Shown here: positions 2,213-45,553 of the stretch, one piece after another | Layout: every line of letters begins with the position of its first letter | Position numbering within the stretch: the stretch's first letter is position 1 | The notes under the pieces: generated by a model | Seen by the model: only the letters and a program-made list of their open reading frames with translations | Databases searched by the model: none | What the model was told of the DNA's origin: nothing | Made by a program: the position numbers and the translations under genes | Origin: Escherichia phage ECML-4 | Length of the DNA stretch: 64,000 nucleotides | Sequence record: JX128257 | Direction: 5' to 3' (one strand)

Positions 2213-5209
2213 TCAACCTTTCTTGCCCATCATGGACAACAGATTAACTCGACGTTTGTGAGACCAACCAACCACGTCTAGAATAGACTGAATCGGCTCT
2301 ATGAAGGTCTTTTCAAACGTGGTGTGGTAATCTACCCACTTATCCAGCCCCAACTCCGGAGGGAGGAAGTCAGGGAAGGCTATGCGGTCGTTCCCCACAG
2401 GGTTCCCAGGTTTCAGGTTAATGATTTTAACCTTATCGCCAGATTCTATCGGCGGGAGACCGAGGTCTTCATGCTTGTCTATCAGCTTGTTGTACATAAT
2501 ACAAGCCTTGGCAGCAAAGTGTGTGCCACTGATATAATTTCCGTTGCCGTCTAACCACTTCTCAATATCACTAACGCCAGAGGCTTGAGCAATATCATCC
2601 ACGGTTAATTCCATATATTCCTTCTTATAACCCGCGATCAATTCCTGAACTTCAGCCTCCGTCCCCAGCAGAACTTTCTCATAGCATTTAACCAGACGCT
2701 CACGACACCATTCCGGCGTTGTAGATTTACGCGCTTCCAGACCTTTGAATTTTATCTTTGGCTTCTCATACTTGATGCCTTCGCTATCGTATACTGCCAT
2801 GCAATACATCTTCTTGGCTCGCCATACAGCAGACGATGCGATGACCTCACGTTCCCAGACCATGCGCTGCTCAAACCCGTTCATGGTATTACACAACAAC
2901 TGCGCCCATTCACTGGTTTTTGGCTGGTAATTCTCTTTGATCCATTGGTCAATGTTATCAACGAGTTTGTGATGATCCTTTTCTTCAGGCCACAATTGCT
3001 TGACCAGACGTTCAATGCAAATGTAGTTGGAGTCAGTATCACCCGCGATAACAAAATCCTGACCAGTAGTGCCGCAAAGTTTGTTCAGATAATCATCGGT
3101 GTGGCGTTTGTTCCATTTGTTGATCAGCTGGCCGGAAGTGGTGATTGCTTCAGCGATGTTGATGTTGAAGTATTCTTTAAACCAGACGTTGGAGATTGCG
3201 CCATAACCTGCGTTCATCAAGATCTTCAGACCTTGTTGTAACGTGTCTTGAGCAACCCCCAGATCTTCCCACTTGTGCATGACTTCAGTCAGGTGATCAA
3301 GATCGATGTGCTTGTGTTCTTCATACCATTCAGGATCGTAGAAACGAGACTTCATGGCGGATTCAAGGTGGAAATCACCTTTAGACATTTCCTTACACCA
3401 ACCAGCCCATTGCTCATACTTCAGGCCAGTTGCTTTCTCTCCTTTACGGTCAGCGTATATGCCTCGCATAATTTCGGAAAGGAAGGACATCTTCTCATTA
3501 CTGAAGAACTGAACGTTCGGGGTAAACGAAACGTTATATCGGCGTAGTGTTTCAAAATGGAATTCGCCCAGCGCGACCAATTCATCAACAACTTGTATGC
3601 GTTCATCAATAGCACGCTGCAACTTGTCGTGAAGATTTTTGAGATGACGACGTTTATTCATCGGCGTTGTCATATCATTCATCGCTTTGGTCAATTCCTC
3701 ACACATGGCCTCAATAATATCACGGCGGGTGTGCTTATCAGAAACGATAGTCTCTGGACCAAGGTTGTATTGCTGTATGATGTGGGGATACAGGGAGTTT
3801 AAGTCCTCAGAGAAGACCCAGAAATATATCCCTGGTGCAACCTCCATGACATATGCGCCTTCAAAATCTGTTGGCCCATCATAGACGCGCTGGATTTTCG
3901 GGACAATCCCCTTCTCATAAAGACGATAATAACACATCGCCAGCCACGGCGCTACAGTGCCGAGACCGTCTTCATAGTTGGATTTAGTGCGATAAGCCAA
4001 TACAAACATCAGCTGTATCAAACGCAGTTTTTGTTCTAAGCGCCACACCAGCTTGACGTCTTTGATACCATATCGCGTATGCTTGCAATAATCATTGAAA
4101 TAAAGGTCATACAATGATTTGCTTTCACTATAATCCAACTTCTTCTCACCGAGTTCACAATAAGCGATCCAGTCCAGTGAGTATTTTTCACGGGTGGTGT
4201 AAGTGTGTTTCTTGTACACTTGCATGTAGTCCATCATTGGACAACCCACAAACTGATAAGACGTGACGTCGCCTTTACGGTCTTTGATGAAACGTTTCTT
4301 CAGTTTACCCCAAGGACTGAGACGTTGGGCTTCAGATTCACCAAGAACCTGCGTAATTCGTTCAACCAAATAGGGGCTATCGAACGTTTCAATGTTCCAC
4401 CCAGTCCAACCGTCAAATTGACGCTGCGACCAGTAATCCAAGAAGGCGCGAAGCAGATCTTGTTCCGTCGTATATTCTTTATATTCAACCTCAAGACCGC
4501 CGACTTCTTCATCATTGGGGTCATATTTGAATTTATGGCGATCCTTGGAACACGGCATGCCCCAGACATAGAATTTATTGGTATTCATATCTTGGAGCTG
4601 TATCAGCGTAATAGGGAACGCCGCATTCATGTTCTGTGTGATTTTACCGTTACTGTCAATTATAGGGAATTGGTCAGTCACGTTGTTGGAAATAAAGGAA
4701 CCAGGGAAATGCTCCCGAACGAAATCATGGTTGGCCAGTACTTGCTTATGGAAACGACGAACCCGCGCCTCGCTGCCTTTAAACGTGTGAGATTCAATCG
4801 TTGCGTGTGGGAATGGACCTTTAGTCATTTCTCCGTCACGCCAACCAGCCGAGAACACTTCGATATCCACGTTGGCGATGTGGATATTTGAATAATCAGG
4901 TGTGATCATCCCAGGAAAACTATGGGCGATGAATTGATATGCATAATCCGTTTGTCCATACACCGCAGCCCCTTCGACCTCCTTGTACTCCTCAAGATAG
5001 TTGTCAGCGTCGCGCATTGATGCAAACTTTTTAGACACCAACGGTTCGTTGAGGAGGCCAATCTTTTCAACTTTGGAATAATCAGCTGTGGGTAAATACA
5101 AGGTGGGTTCGAATTTCTTACGCAACATGCGGCGATTGCCGTTGTCGTCTGCGATACGAATCAGAAGGTCGTTACCCTGTCGGGCAACGTTCGTATAGAA
5201 AACAGTCAT
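2213..5209 (-). CDS. DNA polymerase, family B (T4 gp43-like)
   Basis: Motif A DLNSLYPHII and motif C VIAGDTDS present; overall collinear with remembered T4 gp43. Start chosen at ATG 5209 (MTVFYTN) preceded by GGAGACAAACA; track ORF extends to 5311. Confidence 0.93.
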   Translation of the reverse strand: MTVFYTNVARQGNDLLIRIADDNGNRRMLRKKFEPTLYLPTADYSKVEKIGLLNEPLVSKKFASMRDADNYLEEYKEVEGAAVYGQTDYAYQFIAHSFPGMITPDYSNIHIANVDIEVFSAGWRDGEMTKGPFPHATIESHTFKGSEARVRRFHKQVLANHDFVREHFPGSFISNNVTDQFPIIDSNGKITQNMNAAFPITLIQLQDMNTNKFYVWGMPCSKDRHKFKYDPNDEEVGGLEVEYKEYTTEQDLLRAFLDYWSQRQFDGWTGWNIETFDSPYLVERITQVLGESEAQRLSPWGKLKKRFIKDRKGDVTSYQFVGCPMMDYMQVYKKHTYTTREKYSLDWIAYCELGEKKLDYSESKSLYDLYFNDYCKHTRYGIKDVKLVWRLEQKLRLIQLMFVLAYRTKSNYEDGLGTVAPWLAMCYYRLYEKGIVPKIQRVYDGPTDFEGAYVMEVAPGIYFWVFSEDLNSLYPHIIQQYNLGPETIVSDKHTRRDIIEAMCEELTKAMNDMTTPMNKRRHLKNLHDKLQRAIDERIQVVDELVALGEFHFETLRRYNVSFTPNVQFFSNEKMSFLSEIMRGIYADRKGEKATGLKYEQWAGWCKEMSKGDFHLESAMKSRFYDPEWYEEHKHIDLDHLTEVMHKWEDLGVAQDTLQQGLKILMNAGYGAISNVWFKEYFNINIAEAITTSGQLINKWNKRHTDDYLNKLCGTTGQDFVIAGDTDSNYICIERLVKQLWPEEKDHHKLVDNIDQWIKENYQPKTSEWAQLLCNTMNGFEQRMVWEREVIASSAVWRAKKMYCMAVYDSEGIKYEKPKIKFKGLEARKSTTPEWCRERLVKCYEKVLLGTEAEVQELIAGYKKEYMELTVDDIAQASGVSDIEKWLDGNGNYISGTHFAAKACIMYNKLIDKHEDLGLPPIESGDKVKIINLKPGNPVGNDRIAFPDFLPPELGLDKWVDYHTTFEKTFIEPIQSILDVVGWSHKRRVNLLSMMGKKG

Positions 5210-38954: not shown

Positions 38955-39637
38955 TCATGAGCAATATGTCAGAAAGGTTACTCGCTACGCTTGATGCGGT
39001 GACCGCCCGAGACGAAGTTGGGAAGGAGGCGATGGAGGCTGTCGCCCCTCGTCCAGGTATTGACTTCGATGAAAATACAGGTGAATGGTTTGGTGAACGT
39101 CCGGAAGGGTATCAGCCGATTCCTGAACCTCCATCATTGGAAGATATCGCGTCCAAAGAATCCAAGGTTCCGGAGTTTGCGGATACTGATGCCACAACAG
39201 ATTACAAGCGGATACGCGATACAACATACGCCATGCAGGAAGCCACGATGTTCATGATGGGGCAAGCTGCTAAATTAGCTGCATCTACCGAAGCCCCAAG
39301 AGCGTTTTCCGTGTTTCGTGAATTGGGCGAACTCATGCGCGGCCTGAACAAAGACCTGATGGAAAACCAAAAAACCATCAAAGCTGTGACAGGGGATAAA
39401 GAACCGCCGACTGATGACACGACAGTGGATGTTACCACTTCACCCGACGGGACCACAACAGTATCTGTTGGGAAAAAGGCGAGATCTTCGCGCGATTTAT
39501 TGAAGACGATCGAAGATGCACGCCGCCGCGCTGAAGAAAGAGCACAAGCAAAGGCCGCACAACAACCAGAAGATGAAATCATTGATGGTGAAACAGTTGA
39601 CGTGAAGGAAGAAGACGATGGCGTATCAGAAGCGTGA
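38951..39637 (+). CDS. terminase small subunit (T4 gp16-like)
   Basis: Central region DTTYAMQEATMFMMGQAAKLAASTEAPRAFSVFRELGELMRGLNKDLMENQKTIKAV parallels the remembered T4 gp16 core; overlaps the terminase large subunit start. Confidence 0.7.
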   Translation: MIMSNMSERLLATLDAVTARDEVGKEAMEAVAPRPGIDFDENTGEWFGERPEGYQPIPEPPSLEDIASKESKVPEFADTDATTDYKRIRDTTYAMQEATMFMMGQAAKLAASTEAPRAFSVFRELGELMRGLNKDLMENQKTIKAVTGDKEPPTDDTTVDVTTSPDGTTTVSVGKKARSSRDLLKTIEDARRRAEERAQAKAAQQPEDEIIDGETVDVKEEDDGVSEA

Positions 39638-41828
39638 TATAGAATATGCCCCAATTAAAACGGGGTTCAAAATAGACGATGTGAAATTGCGTATGGACCA
39701 AACGTTCATGCGCAAACCTTCTGTGCGTGCTCCTCGAGTCGAGTTAATGCTGACAGATGAACAAGAAGACGAATTCGTTGAATGTTCTATGGATGCACAC
39801 TACTTCGCCGCCAACTATTACAAGATAACCACGATCGATAAAGGCTTTATCCTTTTCGATATGCATGATTATCAGAAACAATTGTTCCATGACTTTCAGG
39901 ACTATCGATTCAATGCGGTCGTCCAGGCTCGTCAGTCCGGTAAATGCGTCCGTGGTGATACTCTTGTTTATGTCTATGATACAATCAGTCAACAAGAGTT
40001 GCATCTCACCATAGAAGAGCTTCACAAGCGCTTCGAAGGACCGAACCATGCTGTGCCACTGAATACCATTGGCAACCACAATAAGTTTGTAGACAGCCGT
40101 TTCGGGAAACGATATTTTGTTGAGTCCGACACTGGCTGGGTTCCGGTTATTGCCGCTCATAAAACGAAAGAATACGCTGAATACGTGGTCAGGACTGAAA
40201 CCGGACGCACAATTCATGTCGCAGATGAGCACATGTTCTTCAATGAATATGGGCGCGAAGTATTTGCTAAAGACATGGAGGCTGGAGATGCCATAATGAC
40301 CCAGGAGGGAATAGAATTCATCTCTGAGATCTGGGAGACTGGTGAGTACCACCACATGTATGACTTGCAAGTCAAGTCCAGCGATCAACGTTATTACACG
40401 AATGGGTTCCTCAGCCATAATACCACGGTCGTGGCTGCGTTTCTTCTTTGGTATGCGATGTTCCACTCAGACAAAGAAATCGCGGTACTGGCAAACAAAG
40501 AGAAACAAGCGATTGAAATTCTTGACCGTATCAGGAAGGCGTATCAGGACCTCCCATTCTTCCTTCAGCAGGGTTGTGAGAAGTTTGGTTCTACACTGAT
40601 AGAGTTTGAGAACGGCTCTAAGATATATGCTTATGCAACGTCTTCGGACTCTATTCGTGGTCGTTCTGTATCTCTCTTGTACGTGGACGAAGTCGCATTC
40701 ATCGAAAATGACTTTGAATTTTGGGAATCAACATTCCCAGCGATCGCATCTGCTGATACTTCACGTTGTATTCTGACCAGTACTCCGAAAGGCCAGCGAG
40801 GGTTGTTCTATGATATCGTCACCAAAGCAGACCCGCGCCATCCGCAATACAACGACTTCCATCTTACCGAAGTCCCTTGGTACAAGGTTCCGGCGTACAC
40901 CAAAGACCCTGATTGGGAAACCAAACAACGCGCTCGTCTGGGGGATGCCCGTTTTGACCAGGAATTTGGAATCAAGTTCCGTGGTTCTGTAGGTTCATTG
41001 ATACCAGCCAAATGCTTGGATAAAATGACATCCAAGTTATATCGAGAGCCTAATGAGTTCACCAAAATTTACAAGGAATATGACCCGCAACGCATCTACT
41101 TCGGGATCGCAGATACGGGGAAAGGTGTTGAAGGAGATTATTCGGTTCTGACAATTCTGGATATAACGGAATACCCGCATGTCATAGCGGCCAAGTACAG
41201 GAACAATACAATACCTCCGATGATGTATGCATACACGATAGCTGATATGTGTACTGAATACGGGGAGTGTCCAGTCCTTGTAGAAACCAACAACGACGTT
41301 GGTGGACAGGTTATTACAATCTTGTATCAAGAAATTGAGTATCCAGAGATTATATTCACGTCGACGGATAACAAAGGGACAGGGAAACGGATTGGTGGTC
41401 GTAAACCAGAGCCAGGCATTAACACCAACAGGAAAGTGCGATCTATTGGTTGTGCTAACCTGAAAGCGCTTATTGAGAAAGAAATGTTGGTGATTGAAGA
41501 TCAAGACACGATAGATGAACTCAGCACATTCGTGTTCCGTGGTGCGCGTTATGAAGCAGATGATGGATGTCACGACGACTGCGTTATGCCGTTGGTATTA
41601 TATTCTTGGGCAGTTAAACAAGAATGGTTCAGTGATCTGACTTCTACCAGTATTTCTCAAGACATGAGAAATAGAATGTCTTCGACTGAGTCACAACAAG
41701 TATTCCCATTTGGTGGTTTAGTCGTGGGAGACACTCCATCTGGAACTGAGCATCTCCCTGGGTTCGGTGGTGTTCAAGTCTTCGACGAACGTTCAGGGAT
41801 GACAATGGACGAGTGGTTTAAGAATTGA
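39618..41828 (+). CDS. terminase large subunit (T4 gp17-like) interrupted by a mini-intein
   Basis: Walker A RQSGK|TT is split by a 159-aa insert that starts with Cys and ends with His-Asn followed by Thr; flanks are gp17-like. Confidence 0.85.
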   Translation: MAYQKRDIEYAPIKTGFKIDDVKLRMDQTFMRKPSVRAPRVELMLTDEQEDEFVECSMDAHYFAANYYKITTIDKGFILFDMHDYQKQLFHDFQDYRFNAVVQARQSGKCVRGDTLVYVYDTISQQELHLTIEELHKRFEGPNHAVPLNTIGNHNKFVDSRFGKRYFVESDTGWVPVIAAHKTKEYAEYVVRTETGRTIHVADEHMFFNEYGREVFAKDMEAGDAIMTQEGIEFISEIWETGEYHHMYDLQVKSSDQRYYTNGFLSHNTTVVAAFLLWYAMFHSDKEIAVLANKEKQAIEILDRIRKAYQDLPFFLQQGCEKFGSTLIEFENGSKIYAYATSSDSIRGRSVSLLYVDEVAFIENDFEFWESTFPAIASADTSRCILTSTPKGQRGLFYDIVTKADPRHPQYNDFHLTEVPWYKVPAYTKDPDWETKQRARLGDARFDQEFGIKFRGSVGSLIPAKCLDKMTSKLYREPNEFTKIYKEYDPQRIYFGIADTGKGVEGDYSVLTILDITEYPHVIAAKYRNNTIPPMMYAYTIADMCTEYGECPVLVETNNDVGGQVITILYQEIEYPEIIFTSTDNKGTGKRIGGRKPEPGINTNRKVRSIGCANLKALIEKEMLVIEDQDTIDELSTFVFRGARYEADDGCHDDCVMPLVLYSWAVKQEWFSDLTSTSISQDMRNRMSSTESQQVFPFGGLVVGDTPSGTEHLPGFGGVQVFDERSGMTMDEWFKN
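39945..40421 (+). mobile_element. mini-intein (Hint domain, no endonuclease domain) in terminase P-loop
   Basis: In-frame insert CVRGDTLVYV ... MYDLQVKSSDQRYYTNGFLSHN; N-terminal Cys, block F/G-like terminus with HN plus Thr at +1; splicing out restores RQSGKTTVVAA. Confidence 0.7.
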
Positions 41829-41880
41829 TCACTAAATATCTTTCAAATTGAGCGAAACTCTACCGAGAAGGAATAACATT

Positions 41881-43776
41881 ATGGCAACTCAAAGCTTCAG
41901 CGTTGCGCCGTCCGTACAGTGGACTGAGCGTGATGCCACGCTTCAGACTTCTCCGTCCGTGGTTGTTCAGGGCGCGACAGTCGGCAAATTTCAATGGGGT
42001 GAAGTCGAACTCCCAGTGCTGGTGACTGGTGGTGAGACGGGTTTGGTGAAGAAATTCTTCAAACCTAATGACAGCACTGCGACAGATTTCCTTGTGATTG
42101 CAGACTTTTTGTCTTACAGCTCTATGGCATGGGTCACTCGTGTTGTTGGTCCTCTGGCCAAGAACTCTGTCACCAAAGGCCAGACAGCCATCACGATCAA
42201 AAACAAGCTGGATTTTGAAACAGCAAGTCCGTCAGCGTCTATCACTTGGGCTGGTCGTTATCCAGGATCTCTGGGGAATGACATCGCCATCAATGTTTGT
42301 GACTCCGCTGGATTCCCGACATGGGAATTCCGTAACAACTTTGCGTACGCACCTCAGTCTGGTGAATTCCATGTTGTGGTTGTAGACAAAGTTGGGCGCA
42401 TTACTGACTCTGCAGGCGCAGTCGGTCAGGTTGACCGTATATCTGTTTCTGGCACGGCAACTGCAGCTGGCACCATCAGTGTGGCAGGTGAAGATATCGC
42501 ATATCTGGATACTGATACTCCGGCCACTTTGGCGACCAAAATTGGCGCGGCGCTGACGGCGCTAACAGATGTTTATTCTTCTGTCGTTGTTAAGTCTAAC
42601 ACTGTCATCGTGACCCATAAAGCTATTGGTCCCCAGACAGTTACTGCTATTGTTCCAGATGATAAGGGGCTGACTGCAACCGCCGTGATTACCACTGTTG
42701 GTGCATCTGGTTCTATTATCGAAAAATACGAACTCATGCAGAACACACAGGGTTCCAAAAAGTCCGATGGCGCGAATGCGTACTTCAAAGATGTCATCAA
42801 TGATACATCAAATTGGGTGTACACCTTCGCTACCGCTCTGGCCGCAGATGTTGTTGAATTAGAAGGCGGCGTAGACGACTACAATATCAACCGTGTCGCG
42901 GCTATCCAAGTTCTGAACAATGCCGAAGCATATGATGCGAAGCCAGTATTTGCATACTGTGAAGAGTTGATTGAACAACAGGCATTAATCGACTTGTCTA
43001 CCGAGCGAAAAGACACCGTTTCCTTCGTGTCGCCTTTGCGTGATACCGTGGTCGGCAACCGTGGCCGTGAGATGGACGATGTGGTCGCTTGGCGTGAAAG
43101 TCTGGTGCGCGACTCCTCCTATTTCTTCATGGACGACAACTGGGCATACGTGTACGATAAATACAACGATAAGATGCGCTGGATCCCTGCTTGCGGCGGT
43201 ACAGCGGGTGTTTGGGCACGTAGTATTGAAATCGCGGGTATCTACAAATCTCCTGCGTTCCACAACCGTGGCAAATACAACAACTACAATCGAATGGCGT
43301 GGTCTGCGTCTTCCGATGAACGTGCCGTGTTGTACCGCAACCAGATTAACAGCATCGTGACCTTCTCCAATGAAGGTATCGTGTTGTATGGTGACAAAAC
43401 TGGTCTGACACGTCCGTCTGCTTTCGATCGTATCAATGTTCGCGGTCTGTTTATTATGGCAGAACAGAACATCGCTGCAATCGCCAAATATTACCTTGGT
43501 GAGAACAATGATGCGTTCACTCGCAGTCTGTTCAGCAACGCTGTTCGTCCTTATATTCGCCAGCTGGCAAATATGGGCGCGATCTACGATGGTAAAGTCA
43601 AGTGTGACGAAGATAACAACACTGCTGACGTTATTGCGGCAAACCAGATGGTCGCTGGTATCTGGCTGAAACCGGAATACAGCATTAATTGGATCTACTT
43701 GGATTTTGCTGCCGTTCGACCGGACATGGAGTTCAGCGAGATCGAGTCCGGCGGCGGTATCGTCGCGGCGTCCTAA
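41881..43776 (+). CDS. tail sheath protein (T4 gp18-like)
   Basis: GKFQWG near the N-terminus and C-terminal FDRINVRGLF ... NDAFTRS ... SINWIYLDFAA closely parallel T4 gp18; start ATG 41881 after AGGAA; CTAAATATC box upstream. Confidence 0.8.
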   Translation: MATQSFSVAPSVQWTERDATLQTSPSVVVQGATVGKFQWGEVELPVLVTGGETGLVKKFFKPNDSTATDFLVIADFLSYSSMAWVTRVVGPLAKNSVTKGQTAITIKNKLDFETASPSASITWAGRYPGSLGNDIAINVCDSAGFPTWEFRNNFAYAPQSGEFHVVVVDKVGRITDSAGAVGQVDRISVSGTATAAGTISVAGEDIAYLDTDTPATLATKIGAALTALTDVYSSVVVKSNTVIVTHKAIGPQTVTAIVPDDKGLTATAVITTVGASGSIIEKYELMQNTQGSKKSDGANAYFKDVINDTSNWVYTFATALAADVVELEGGVDDYNINRVAAIQVLNNAEAYDAKPVFAYCEELIEQQALIDLSTERKDTVSFVSPLRDTVVGNRGREMDDVVAWRESLVRDSSYFFMDDNWAYVYDKYNDKMRWIPACGGTAGVWARSIEIAGIYKSPAFHNRGKYNNYNRMAWSASSDERAVLYRNQINSIVTFSNEGIVLYGDKTGLTRPSAFDRINVRGLFIMAEQNIAAIAKYYLGENNDAFTRSLFSNAVRPYIRQLANMGAIYDGKVKCDEDNNTADVIAANQMVAGIWLKPEYSINWIYLDFAAVRPDMEFSEIESGGGIVAAS

Positions 43777-43810
43777 ATATAAGACACATGCCCTCTTCGG
43801 AGGGCATTTC

Positions 43811-44534
43811 AATGATCTTTATAATAGAGAACATCGAAATGATCGGAAGTGTCTACAAAATCACAAATCTCACCAACCAGAAAGCCTATATCGGGATCAC
43901 CACACGCGACCCAATAGACAGGTGGTGGGAGCATTGCAACAACGCTCAGAACGGCTCTGATTACTTCATTCACCAGGCCATCCGTAAATACGGCGAAGAA
44001 TCATTCTCGGTTCAGGTAATCGCGCAGACCAATTCTATAGAAGACCTCAAAGAATTAGAGATCATCTTGATAAAACAGCACGGCACTCATATGTCTACAC
44101 AGAAAGGTTATAACAAGACTTGGGGTGGTGACGGCGCAACTTCTTCAGGGAAAGCGGGGGCAATAGACGTTAATACTGGTGAACGTTTAGGACTAATAGA
44201 TTGTTCAGATCCTCGTTGGGATATGGGGGAGATTATTAGTTGCAGACATGGAGTCAAACATAAAGATAATACCAGGTTGTCCAACTATGCCAAAACTCGG
44301 ACTGGCGTTAAGAACCCCAATGCCAAGAAGTTCAAACTGATTTCACCATCCGGTGAAGAACATGAGATACATGGGAATTGCAAAGAATATGTGGAAAGCC
44401 TTGGGTTGAAATATTCAGCTCTTTATGATTATATTGAGAAAGACATCCCTGTTCCTCCGCCTTCTATATTTCATAAGAAGAATGCTTCACAAGAACGATT
44501 GAACACTGTTGGGTGGAGACTCGAAAGAATATGA
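43811..44534 (+). CDS. GIY-YIG homing endonuclease (Seg-like)
   Basis: N-terminal VYKITNLTNQKAYIGIT (GIY ... YIG); start set at ATG 43811 after the hairpin following the sheath gene. Track ORF start at 43689 overlaps the sheath gene. Confidence 0.7.
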
Positions 44535-44989
44535 TATACGCATACAAAATTGAAATGGTTTGTAATGGAAAGGTCTACATCGGTGTGACCAATCACCCAC
44601 AACGAAGATATGATCAGCATTTTGCGAATGCCTTTCATCATGGAGTCCAAAGTGAATTGTATGACGCCATGCGTAAGTATGGAACATCTGGATTTACTTT
44701 CGTTGTAATTGCTCAGACCGATGAAGTCCATAAATGGGAATTAGAGAAGCAACTCATCGCTCAATATAATTCTTATGAGATGGGTTACAACATGAATAAA
44801 GGCGGTAATGATGGAAGTCATATGCTGGGTAAAACTGCAGCAAAATTGACATCCACAGGTGAACACATTGGTCTTGTTTCTCTCATAGATCCCCGTTGGG
44901 AATTGTGTGAAATCGAACCTGTTTCAAGTAATGTTCATCATGGTTTCGATCTTTCTTCTATGAAGATTAAAAGATTGACGACTAATTAG
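44531..44989 (+). CDS. GIY-YIG homing endonuclease, paralogue of the preceding gene
   Basis: IYAYKIEMVCNGKVYIGVT motif; shares TGEHIGLVSLIDPRWELCEI with upstream TGERLGLIDCSDPRWDMGEI; ATGA start/stop overlap. Confidence 0.7.
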   Translation: MIYAYKIEMVCNGKVYIGVTNHPQRRYDQHFANAFHHGVQSELYDAMRKYGTSGFTFVVIAQTDEVHKWELEKQLIAQYNSYEMGYNMNKGGNDGSHMLGKTAAKLTSTGEHIGLVSLIDPRWELCEIEPVSSNVHHGFDLSSMKIKRLTTN

Positions 44990-45019
44990 AATTGTGTACT
45001 CTTATTTGGAGATATAAAA

Positions 45020-45553
45020 ATGGCGACAGTCAATGAGTTTCGCGCAGCCATGTCACGAGGGGGCGGCGTACAACGCCAACACCGCTGGCGTGTGACTGTA
45101 AACTTTCCTTCTTTTGTTGCTGGTTCCGACACAATTCGCGACGTGTCCTTGCTGGCTGTAACTACCAACACCCCGACAGGTCAGCTGGGTGAAATTCTGG
45201 TGCCCTGGGGTGGTCGTGAACTTCCATTCCCAGGCGACCGTCGTTTCGAAGCACTGCCTGTAACATTCATTAACGTTGTGAACAACGCGCCGTACAACGC
45301 ATTTGAAGTGTGGCAGCAATTCATCAATGGTAGTGAAAACAACCGTGCCAGCGCGAATCCAGATGATTATTTCCGTGATATCATCATGGAGCTTCTGGAT
45401 GCGAATGACAATGTCACCAAGACATGGACTTTGCAGGGTGGCTGGCCTCAAAACCTCGGCCAATTGGAACTCGATATGTCTGCGATGGACTCTTATACAC
45501 AGTTCACCGTCGATCTGCGTTATTTCCAAGCCGTGTCAGACAAATCTTTATAA
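45020..45553 (+). CDS. tail tube protein (T4 gp19-like)
   Basis: C-terminal QGGWPQNLGQLELDMSAMDSYTQFTVDL parallels T4 gp19 KGLWPTNVGELQLDWDSNNEIQTFEVTL. Confidence 0.7.
   Translation: MATVNEFRAAMSRGGGVQRQHRWRVTVNFPSFVAGSDTIRDVSLLAVTTNTPTGQLGEILVPWGGRELPFPGDRRFEALPVTFINVVNNAPYNAFEVWQQFINGSENNRASANPDDYFRDIIMELLDANDNVTKTWTLQGGWPQNLGQLELDMSAMDSYTQFTVDLRYFQAVSDKSL

Follow-up and report, generated by a model that had tools for sequence, protein, structure and literature searches.

How do two genes for GIY-YIG nucleases come to stand side by side between the tail sheath and the tail tube genes of a phage, and do both of them behave as mobile elements? The question is raised by a stretch of 64,000 nucleotides (nt) from Escherichia phage ECML-4 (sequence record JX128257), called the window in the following. 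The two genes are neighbouring open reading frames (ORFs) on the + strand, ORF1 at 43812..44534 and ORF2 at 44531..44989, with the sheath gene on one side and the tube gene on the other. A first-pass annotation, made from the letters alone, had taken them for a tandem of paralogous homing endonuclease genes which arose by an invasion followed either by duplication or by a second invasion, and had suggested that the shorter copy may be degenerate.

The answer at which we arrive is that the two genes have different histories. ORF1 is, by the way its divergence departs from that of its flanks, the mobile partner and has been transferred recently. ORF2 has lost a domain and is truncated, yet by its constant length and the selection acting on it, it is not decaying; its distribution is that of a vertically inherited resident of Kuttervirus, Taipeivirus and Miltonvirus-like phages which is not currently mobile. 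We consider it likely that the 1.18-kb block 43812-44986 is selfish DNA which has been placed behind the sheath gene and ahead of the promoter/ribosome-binding region of the tube gene, and hold the explanation as a whole with the same confidence. The closest relatives of the window are the Salmonella phages vB_SenM-AKM_ssTn, Guerrero and STML-13-1, which are 99.1-99.4% identical to it over the sheath-to-tube stretch of 3.7 kb and belong to the genus Kuttervirus (ViI-like phages) of the Ackermannviridae. The detailed analysis covers few genome pairs.

The sheath-tube junction as an insertion site

That the two genes interrupt the junction can be seen from relatives in which it is empty. Between the sheath and tube genes there are 10 nt in VP-1 and 14 nt in D506, both of them Vibrio Ackermannviridae, and in Enterobacter phage EspM4VN (Agtrevirus) a gap of ~63 nt holds a hairpin followed by CTAAATAGAATTGTGTAAC...GGAGA...ATG. 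The comparison with related phages which the first-pass annotation had proposed therefore finds empty sites, and in addition a phage, ViI, which lacks ORF1 only. The right edge of the insertion is marked by a pre-tube element, CTAATTAGAATTGTGTA (44982..44998, + strand), which includes the stop codon of ORF2 and a CTAAATA sequence with one mismatch. The element is found upstream of the tube gene in every genome compared, in EspM4VN as CTAAATAGAATTGTGTAAC, and where an ORF1-type or a SeKF_19-type gene stands alone, its 3' end is formed by the same element. Since EspM4VN and the window (after ORF2) have this element in common, the inserted block is 43812-44986, exactly the two ORFs.

The same slot is filled in several other ways. 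An ORF2-type gene alone is found in ViI, CBA120, most Kuttervirus and Serratia 2050H1, and together with a small hypothetical gene in Klebsiella phage Magnus (Taipeivirus). The tandem of ORF1 and ORF2 occurs in ~23 records, several Klebsiella phages among them, and an ORF1-type gene alone in pertopsoe, SKML-39, ChubbyThor and phiA8-29. SeKF_19 and L021 carry a third full-length type, SJ2 and SilasIsHot a reverse-strand GIY-YIG gene of 262-264 amino acids (aa), with or without ORF2, and maane and LIMEstone1 a reverse-strand Hef-like gene of ~590 aa. The slot is a homing endonuclease hotspot in Ackermannviridae. For the Dickeya phage LIMEstone1 the location of the Hef-like F-LimVIII between sheath and tube has been described (PMC3296691). 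Replacement of one cassette by another is known from T4-like phages, where SegH/Hef replaces mobC/mobE according to a passage in the same paper (cited in PMC3296691). The likeness is that a single intergenic slot, the very same junction in the case of LIMEstone1 and maane, holds different endonuclease genes in related phages; the difference is that the window has a pair of related GIY-YIG genes standing in tandem, neither replacing the other.

This variety bears on the idea that neither gene is mobile and both are conserved parts of the tail cluster, regulators or assembly factors for instance, with no more than a resemblance to nucleases. ORF2 does stand at this position in most family members, but viable relatives have empty junctions, at least five unrelated or distantly related occupants share the slot (ORF1, ORF2 and SeKF_19 types, the reverse-strand GIY-YIG gene and the reverse-strand Hef-like gene), the catalytic residues are retained and ORF1 has been transferred horizontally, so that we give the idea hardly any credence. 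The first-pass annotation had named conserved non-mobile genes, and loss of catalytic residues in both copies, as findings which would speak against homing. The former applies in part to ORF2, which is resident in three genera, and not to the mobile ORF1; as to the latter, the residues are invariant in both families.

A neighbouring junction is also used as a homing site, to judge from Vibrio phage VP-1, in which a reverse-strand Hef-like homing endonuclease gene (3551-5005) lies between the tube gene and the next head gene.

Identity of the two proteins

Both proteins belong to the GIY-YIG superfamily, on model score and catalytic residues and in the case of ORF1 also on fold. With the Pfam model GIY-YIG (PF01541) ORF1 scores 36.2 bits and ORF2 39.4 bits, both above the gathering cut-off of 22.6, and all of the 23 ORF1 homologs match the model. 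The proteins align with each other at 40% identity over 139 aa (BLASTP, E 7e-25), and a profile-profile comparison places ORF2 1-141 on ORF1 10-153 with a probability of 99.9%. The claim of two adjacent GIY-YIG ORFs is thus borne out. ORF1 residues 3-239 match phrog_314 (E 5e-39) and ORF2 matches phrog_5123 at positions 1-152 of 152 (E 2e-93), both families being labelled 'homing endonuclease'; because the latter match runs from end to end, 152 aa is the normal length for the family of ORF2.

ORF1 is a full-length free-standing homing endonuclease gene coding for 240 aa (241 codons including the stop). The first-pass annotation had correctly recognised both reading frames but had begun this one at 43780, 32 nt upstream of the first usable ATG, and had counted 241 aa. 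Other in-frame ATGs are found at 43788 and 43839, and the majority of the homologs begin at the equivalent of 43839 (MIGSVYKI), which gives a protein of 231 aa. The catalytic domain comprises residues 12-101 (43845..44114, + strand), and its residues Y15, Y26, R37, H41, E83 and N101 are invariant across the 23 homologs. The corresponding residues of ORF2, Y5, Y16, R26, H30, E72 and N87, are invariant in the alignment of the ORF2 family. In I-TevI, the endonuclease of the T4 td intron, their equivalents are Y6, Y17, R27, H31, E75 and N90. An origin of both genes in the GIY-YIG homing endonuclease lineage, as first proposed, agrees with the retention of these residues. In the AlphaFold model of ORF1 the mean confidence score (pLDDT) is 81 and the alpha/beta fold of the GIY-YIG domain is present.

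Downstream of the catalytic domain both proteins carry the block TGExxGLxxxxDPRWxxxEI, which had been noticed at the outset and is conserved throughout both families. It reads TGERLGLIDCSDPRWDMGEI in ORF1 (44175..44234, + strand) and TGEHIGLVSLIDPRWELCEI in ORF2 (44855..44914, + strand), where almost all positions are invariant in the family. The block is predicted to form a mini-domain of a beta-hairpin and a short helix; in the model of ORF1 the strands comprise residues 114-119 and 125-130 and the helix residues 134-138, with a pLDDT of 82-90. ORF1 continues with a conserved C-terminal module (residues 154-240; 44271..44531, + strand) which has no counterpart in ORF2, so that the 152 aa of ORF2 consist of catalytic domain and post-catalytic block only. 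The module is presumed to bind DNA, from its position, its conservation and weak similarities. A Pfam search of the ORF1 C-terminal part and the ORF2 tail up to an E-value of 10 gave no match, and among the 23 ORF1 homologs marginal NUMOD3 matches were found in 2 members only. Matches of the C-terminal part to Saf pilus entries in a PDB profile search look spurious and were discarded.

The T4 SegA-SegG proteins are the obvious systems for comparison. Like ORF1 and ORF2 they have the GIY-YIG domain at the N-terminus, and their genes are likewise intergenic between conserved genes and present or absent among close relatives. Unlike the Seg proteins, ORF1 has no detectable NUMOD or zinc-finger motifs in its C-terminal part, and ORF2 is entirely without a C-terminal DNA-binding part. 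The alignment with the I-Tev and Seg families which had been suggested gave a divided result: the six residues map onto I-TevI, but with the model for T4 SegE (Pfam SegE_GIY-YIG, PF19835) ORF1 reaches 20 bits at a cut-off of 25 and ORF2 gives no match; the best E-value for this model among the 23 ORF1 homologs is 1e-4. The likeness to I-TevI is confined to the catalytic domain. Unlike I-TevI, ORF1 and ORF2 are not intron-encoded and have no conserved Cys/His zinc finger, the identity is just ~21-25%, and the C-terminal module of ORF1 is not recognisably related to that of I-TevI.

The basic identification of both genes is already in databases and literature, and in this respect the feature is an ordinary one. 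ORF1 has counterparts with 100% identity in STML-13-1 and ECML-4, that of ECML-4 being named 'homing endonuclease', and in the RefSeq record of STML-13-1 the pair bears the labels 'homing endonuclease' and 'homing endonuclease with GIY-YIG motif'. ORF2 has the orthologs Vi01_159c in ViI (99% identity) and orf195 in CBA120 (95%), annotated 'GIY-YIG endonuclease', and orf195 figures in a published list among the putative homing endonucleases, as a 'homolog of T4 segD' (Kutter et al., 2011; PMC3184105). Full-text literature searches did not find published functional work on these proteins.

ORF1 and its history

On either side of the site ViI matches the window at 99-100% identity; what it is missing is exactly ORF1, with the 5' end of ORF2 unchanged, and many other phages are like it. 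The sheath genes of the window and ViI differ at 32 positions. The final 91 nt account for 21 of these and the 1805 nt before them for 11 (Fisher p 1.6e-21), while a stretch of 1970 nt on the downstream side of ORF1 has just 8 mismatches. The tract adjoining ORF1 (43686..43776, + strand) is therefore 23% divergent within a backbone which is >99% identical, and all of its changes are synonymous save V605I. We regard it as a candidate co-conversion tract or cleavage-immunity region. In the pair of Klebsiella phages Bullseye, which has ORF1, and Magnus, which lacks it, the breakpoint likewise lies at -91, and just past it is a 30-nt bin which is identical in the window and Bullseye, while their relatives without ORF1 share an alternative haplotype. 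A signature consistent with co-conversion beside ORF1 is thus seen in two independent backbones at the same breakpoint. In T4, SegF and SegG cause conversion of flanking markers ('intronless homing' or localized marker exclusion), and the 91-nt tract at ORF1 fits this behaviour.

The synonymous divergence (dS) of ORF1 does not follow that of its neighbours. Between the window and Bullseye it is 0.31 for ORF1, against 1.23 for the sheath gene, 1.29 for ORF2 and 1.18 for the tube gene; the nucleotide identity of ORF1 is 93%, and that of the 35-nt intergenic spacer is complete (35/35). Between the window and rabagast the order is reversed, with 0.98 for ORF1, 0.48 for sheath, 0.0 for ORF2 and 0.28 for tube, and a tract of ~600 nt comprising ORF2 and the beginning of the tube gene is identical. 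In these two phages the ORF1 alleles are themselves uneven. The catalytic domain and the C-terminal end are ~90-98% identical, while the middle (44137-44300, residues ~110-165) has 33-55% identity and indels, a mosaic which suggests that modules have been shuffled between alleles. The ratio of nonsynonymous to synonymous divergence (dN/dS) of 0.05-0.13 shows that ORF1 is under purifying selection.

ORF1 accordingly combines an intergenic insertion, empty sites, a history discordant with its flanks and a flanking tract with the signature of conversion, which are the hallmarks of homing. As every ORF1 ortholog found stands at this single junction, the element is site-specific. A definition of the target as one single site was considered and not adopted, and is kept as a working idea, the haplotypes being mosaic with rabagast as an exception. 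A scan of IMG/VR for the two 24-nt sheath haplotypes returned 1 and 3 contigs, numbers which are consistent with the expected association (the ORF1+ haplotype with ORF1, the others without) and too few to count for much. For work on homing and co-conversion in phages with hypermodified DNA, near-isogenic pairs with and without ORF1 (STML-13-1 or ECML-4 versus ViI or Marshall) are ready material.

A fragment of ORF1 is also found in an unrelated phage. In Salmonella phage vB_SentM_sal2 (Chivirus, L016, 59.5 kb) 55 bp at 2501-2555 are 100% identical to window 43832-43886, at the 5' end of ORF1, and are embedded in frame inside a lambda-type large terminase gene. An ectopic insertion of ORF1 was rejected here in favour of a probable assembly or consensus artefact, because the fragment is not a multiple of 3 and nevertheless lies in frame inside an intact terminase ORF, and because the record apparently belongs to the same series as that of the ORF1+ Kuttervirus sal1 (adjacent accessions, matching names).

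Origin of the tandem

The first-pass annotation had left the choice between duplication and a second invasion, and the evidence favours the latter. Under the former, one invading GIY-YIG gene was duplicated locally, after which divergence and truncation affected the downstream copy. ORF1 and ORF2 are indeed mutual paralogs in a clade specific to Ackermannviridae, with the post-catalytic block in common, and a tandem is present also in a distant, Miltonvirus-like lineage. The state with ORF2 alone is, however, common and old, and by far the commonest (~175 of ~200 ORF2-bearing records). The two genes also differ in age in the same genome pairs, their dS being 0.31 versus 1.29 in one and 0.98 versus 0.0 in the other. 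Moreover, the nearest full-length relative of ORF2 is not ORF1 (40%) but the SeKF_19 type (57%), and genes of the ORF1, SeKF_19 and ORF2 types behave as alleles, since each can be the sole occupant of the site and all have the same 3' junction. On these grounds we take the tandem to be the product of a second invasion, and judge local duplication very unlikely. A further paralog of ORF1 and ORF2 was sought within the 64-kb window and none was found.

The stop codon of ORF1 and the start codon of ORF2 overlap in the sequence ATGA. The junction between the genes (…AAAGAAT|ATGATATA…) does not differ between the window, Bullseye and rabagast, as it should be if homologous repair spreads the cassette and ORF2 provides the downstream arm. 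In a distant Miltonvirus-like contig the genes follow each other in the same order at a slightly different junction, with 64% identity for ORF1 and 59% for ORF2; the arrangement is therefore old or has arisen more than once.

ORF2 as a truncated resident

Orthologs of ORF2 at >=60% identity are found in ~198 phage records, and their identity tracks taxonomy, with 94.7-100% in Kuttervirus, ~82% in Taipeivirus and 55-62% in Miltonvirus-like phages. Compared with Taipeivirus the dS of ORF2 is 1.29-1.39, equal to that of sheath and tube, and dN/dS is 0.09. The proteins form 9 clusters, all of 151-156 aa except one fragment and one with a mis-called upstream start. ORF2 lacks the two-domain architecture as well as the horizontal spread of homing endonucleases.

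The part corresponding to ORF1 residues 154-240 is absent from ORF2. Its closest full-length relative, the SeKF_19/L021 protein (230-250 aa), is 57-58% identical over ORF2 residues 4-131 and has a C-terminal module like that of ORF1. In the DNA, the final codons of ORF2 align on the same junction, CTAATTAGAATTGT, as does the 3' end of the SeKF_19-type gene, with ~270 nt missing between. The simplest reading of this alignment is that ORF2 would derive from a full-length gene of the SeKF_19 type by an internal deletion in place which predates the split of the three genera.

Such a gene could be a dead remnant, a functionless truncated pseudogene of a homing endonuclease on its way to being lost, which is close to the suggestion that the shorter copy may be degenerate. 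The whole C-terminal module of the full-length relatives is missing; GC content is very low (38%, and 33% at third codon positions, GC3); in ViI, ORF2 stands behind a terminator-like hairpin and lacks a separate promoter motif; and its place is taken by other endonuclease genes in some Kuttervirus genomes. A decaying gene would, on the other hand, hardly show a dN/dS of 0.09 at a dS of ~1.3, or keep frame and length (151-156 aa) over a range of 55-100% identity, or retain 66 invariant alignment columns, among them every catalytic residue and nearly all of the post-catalytic block. Of the first suggestion the absence of the extended C-terminal region stands and degeneracy does not, and we find the dead remnant unlikely.

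What sustains such a 'half' homing endonuclease for so long is the question raised by a conserved ORF2 without a binding domain. Having lost the module and being kept by selection in at least three genera of Ackermannviridae, ORF2 may have been domesticated, that is, recruited for a task which benefits the phage and is different from its own homing; we give this a rather low probability. The possible roles are nicking or degradation of unmodified DNA of the host or of competing phages, as with T4 endonuclease II (DenA), exclusion of co-infecting relatives, protection of the slot from other homing endonuclease genes, or provision of a second active site for ORF1 or another DNA-binding partner. 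DenA is of the same size class (136 versus 152 aa), is a small GIY-YIG protein without a separate DNA-binding domain, and is encoded and retained by the phage for its own benefit. An EndoII-like identity found no support, EndoII not being the closest relative in structure or sequence. Against domestication, ORF2 is located in the late structural operon and not among early genes, and it is dispensable, since several viable Kuttervirus, Agtrevirus and Limestonevirus phages are without it.

A model for the locus

The model which we prefer, a resident ORF2 followed by invasion of ORF1, can be put together as follows. ORF2 would be the earlier occupant of the site, a derivative of the SeKF_19 type minus its C-terminal module. 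An ORF1-type gene would then have entered a genome bearing ORF2 and created the tandem. ORF1 would be made late in infection from its own promoter of the CTAAATA type, and the endonuclease would cut the sheath-3'/intergenic region in co-infecting relatives without ORF1, in which recombinational repair would copy in ORF1 plus a short flanking tract. The tandem would have spread among ORF2-bearing phages by homologous recombination, which would preserve the exact ATGA junction. The sequence comparisons show how the genes are related, which domains they contain, how they are distributed, where recombination has left signatures and that selection acts; nuclease activity, the target, the time of expression and the direction of transfer in this scheme are what we infer.

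Several points weigh against the model and should be mentioned together. The polarity of the ORF1 indel is ambiguous from the sequences, which allow gain as well as loss by recombination with a phage without ORF1. In rabagast an 81% ORF1 allele is combined with a sheath-3' haplotype of mostly the 'ORF1-less' kind, and the linkage of haplotype and ORF1 is not strict; for this reason the target/immunity region is tentative. Part of the history of ORF1 could be old and vertical, in view of the tandem in the Miltonvirus-like contig. The dS values above ~1, such as those of sheath, ORF2 and tube against Bullseye, are near saturation, and the record counts include RefSeq/GenBank duplicates. As to the proteins, the C-terminal module of ORF1 has no significant match in Pfam or PDB, and the structure model of ORF2 has a pLDDT of 54.7, built on a shallow alignment of 9 sequences.

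Practically, the value of the locus lies mostly in annotation, as a clean and well-documented case of a hotspot for homing endonuclease genes within the structural operon of a phage. Where therapeutic isolates of Kuttervirus differ here, the difference is one of selfish-gene turnover; tail function is not changed.

Expression signals

A CTAAATA motif resembling a late promoter is found at 43773..43779 (+ strand), overlapping the sheath stop codon and 33 nt before the ATG of ORF1. The window contains 15 copies of CTAAATA versus 7.4 expected, and none of 100 shuffles reaches 15. All copies but one (14/15) lie within ~45 nt upstream of an ORF start, mostly at 22-43 nt, and the genes concerned include sheath, scaffold and other late genes; in this tally the copy at 43773 was counted by its shorter spacing, to the in-frame ATG at 43788. 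Example sites of CTAAATA(C/T) are 41832, 43773, 47311, 48529 and 57376 on the + strand and 8043, 8522 and 12707 on the - strand, and a short GC-rich hairpin often follows. From its distribution CTAAATA(C/T) is probably the late promoter of ViI-like phages. In the CBA120 paper a late promoter was not identified (2011; PMC3184105). The motif is absent from the ORF1-less junction of ViI. A single copy of the T4 late promoter TATAAATA is present in the window, away from this locus, and scans for sigma-70 promoters and terminators gave matches at chance level.

At 43788..43807 (+ strand) follows a stable hairpin, AUGCCCUC-UUCG-GAGGGCAU, the 3' arm of which holds a GGAGG Shine-Dalgarno sequence for the ATG at 43812. 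The region 43770-43850 folds with -21.6 kcal/mol (z -3.1), and genomes without ORF1 have a second hairpin allele in the same place. The hairpin could be either the terminator of the sheath gene or a stem in the 5' untranslated region. A role as dedicated translational repressor of ORF1 was considered and downgraded, similar promoter-proximal hairpins being found before ordinary late genes. Translation of ORF2 may be coupled to that of ORF1.

Where a phage has ORF1 alone, a mini-ORF of 7 codons (MISCELQ*) begins with the ATG behind the hairpin, upstream of the real start. In the lineage of the window (43812-43838) this mini-ORF is fused in frame to ORF1 as an N-terminal extension of 9 aa, MIFIIENIE, which is found in the closest relatives only.

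Flanking genes and minor observations

The upstream flank is the tail sheath gene (gp18-like; 41881..43776, + strand), which matches Pfam Phage_sheath_1C, Phage_sheath_1 and Gp18_domIII_N and is called tail sheath in the annotation of relatives. Its mechanical ORF begins with TTG at 41848; the ATG at 41881 is the start annotated in relatives. The downstream flank is the tail tube gene (gp19-like; 45020..45553, + strand), with a match to Pfam Phage_T4_gp19 and annotated as tail tube in relatives. In GC content ORF1 (42.5%) and ORF2 (38.3%) are both below these neighbours (~50%).

Compared with all relatives, the tube gene of EspM4VN (~2471-2555) is short of 1 nt near codon 14 (CGTGGGG-CGGCG), with the consequence that a shortened tube protein is annotated in the record; the gap is likely a sequencing error.

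The large terminase gene (39618-41828) contains a mini-intein of 159 aa (window 39945-40421; residues 110-268, C...SHN|T) inserted directly behind the Walker A lysine (…QARQSGK|C) and without an endonuclease domain. The assignment is based on a match to Pfam Intein_splicing which is under the threshold, and on Klebsiella phage Magnus, where an intein is annotated at the same position. In the 3' part of the same gene, 10 of the 18 differences from ViI in 1.5 kb are packed into 85 nt (window 41267-41351), a cluster which suggests another short recombination patch.

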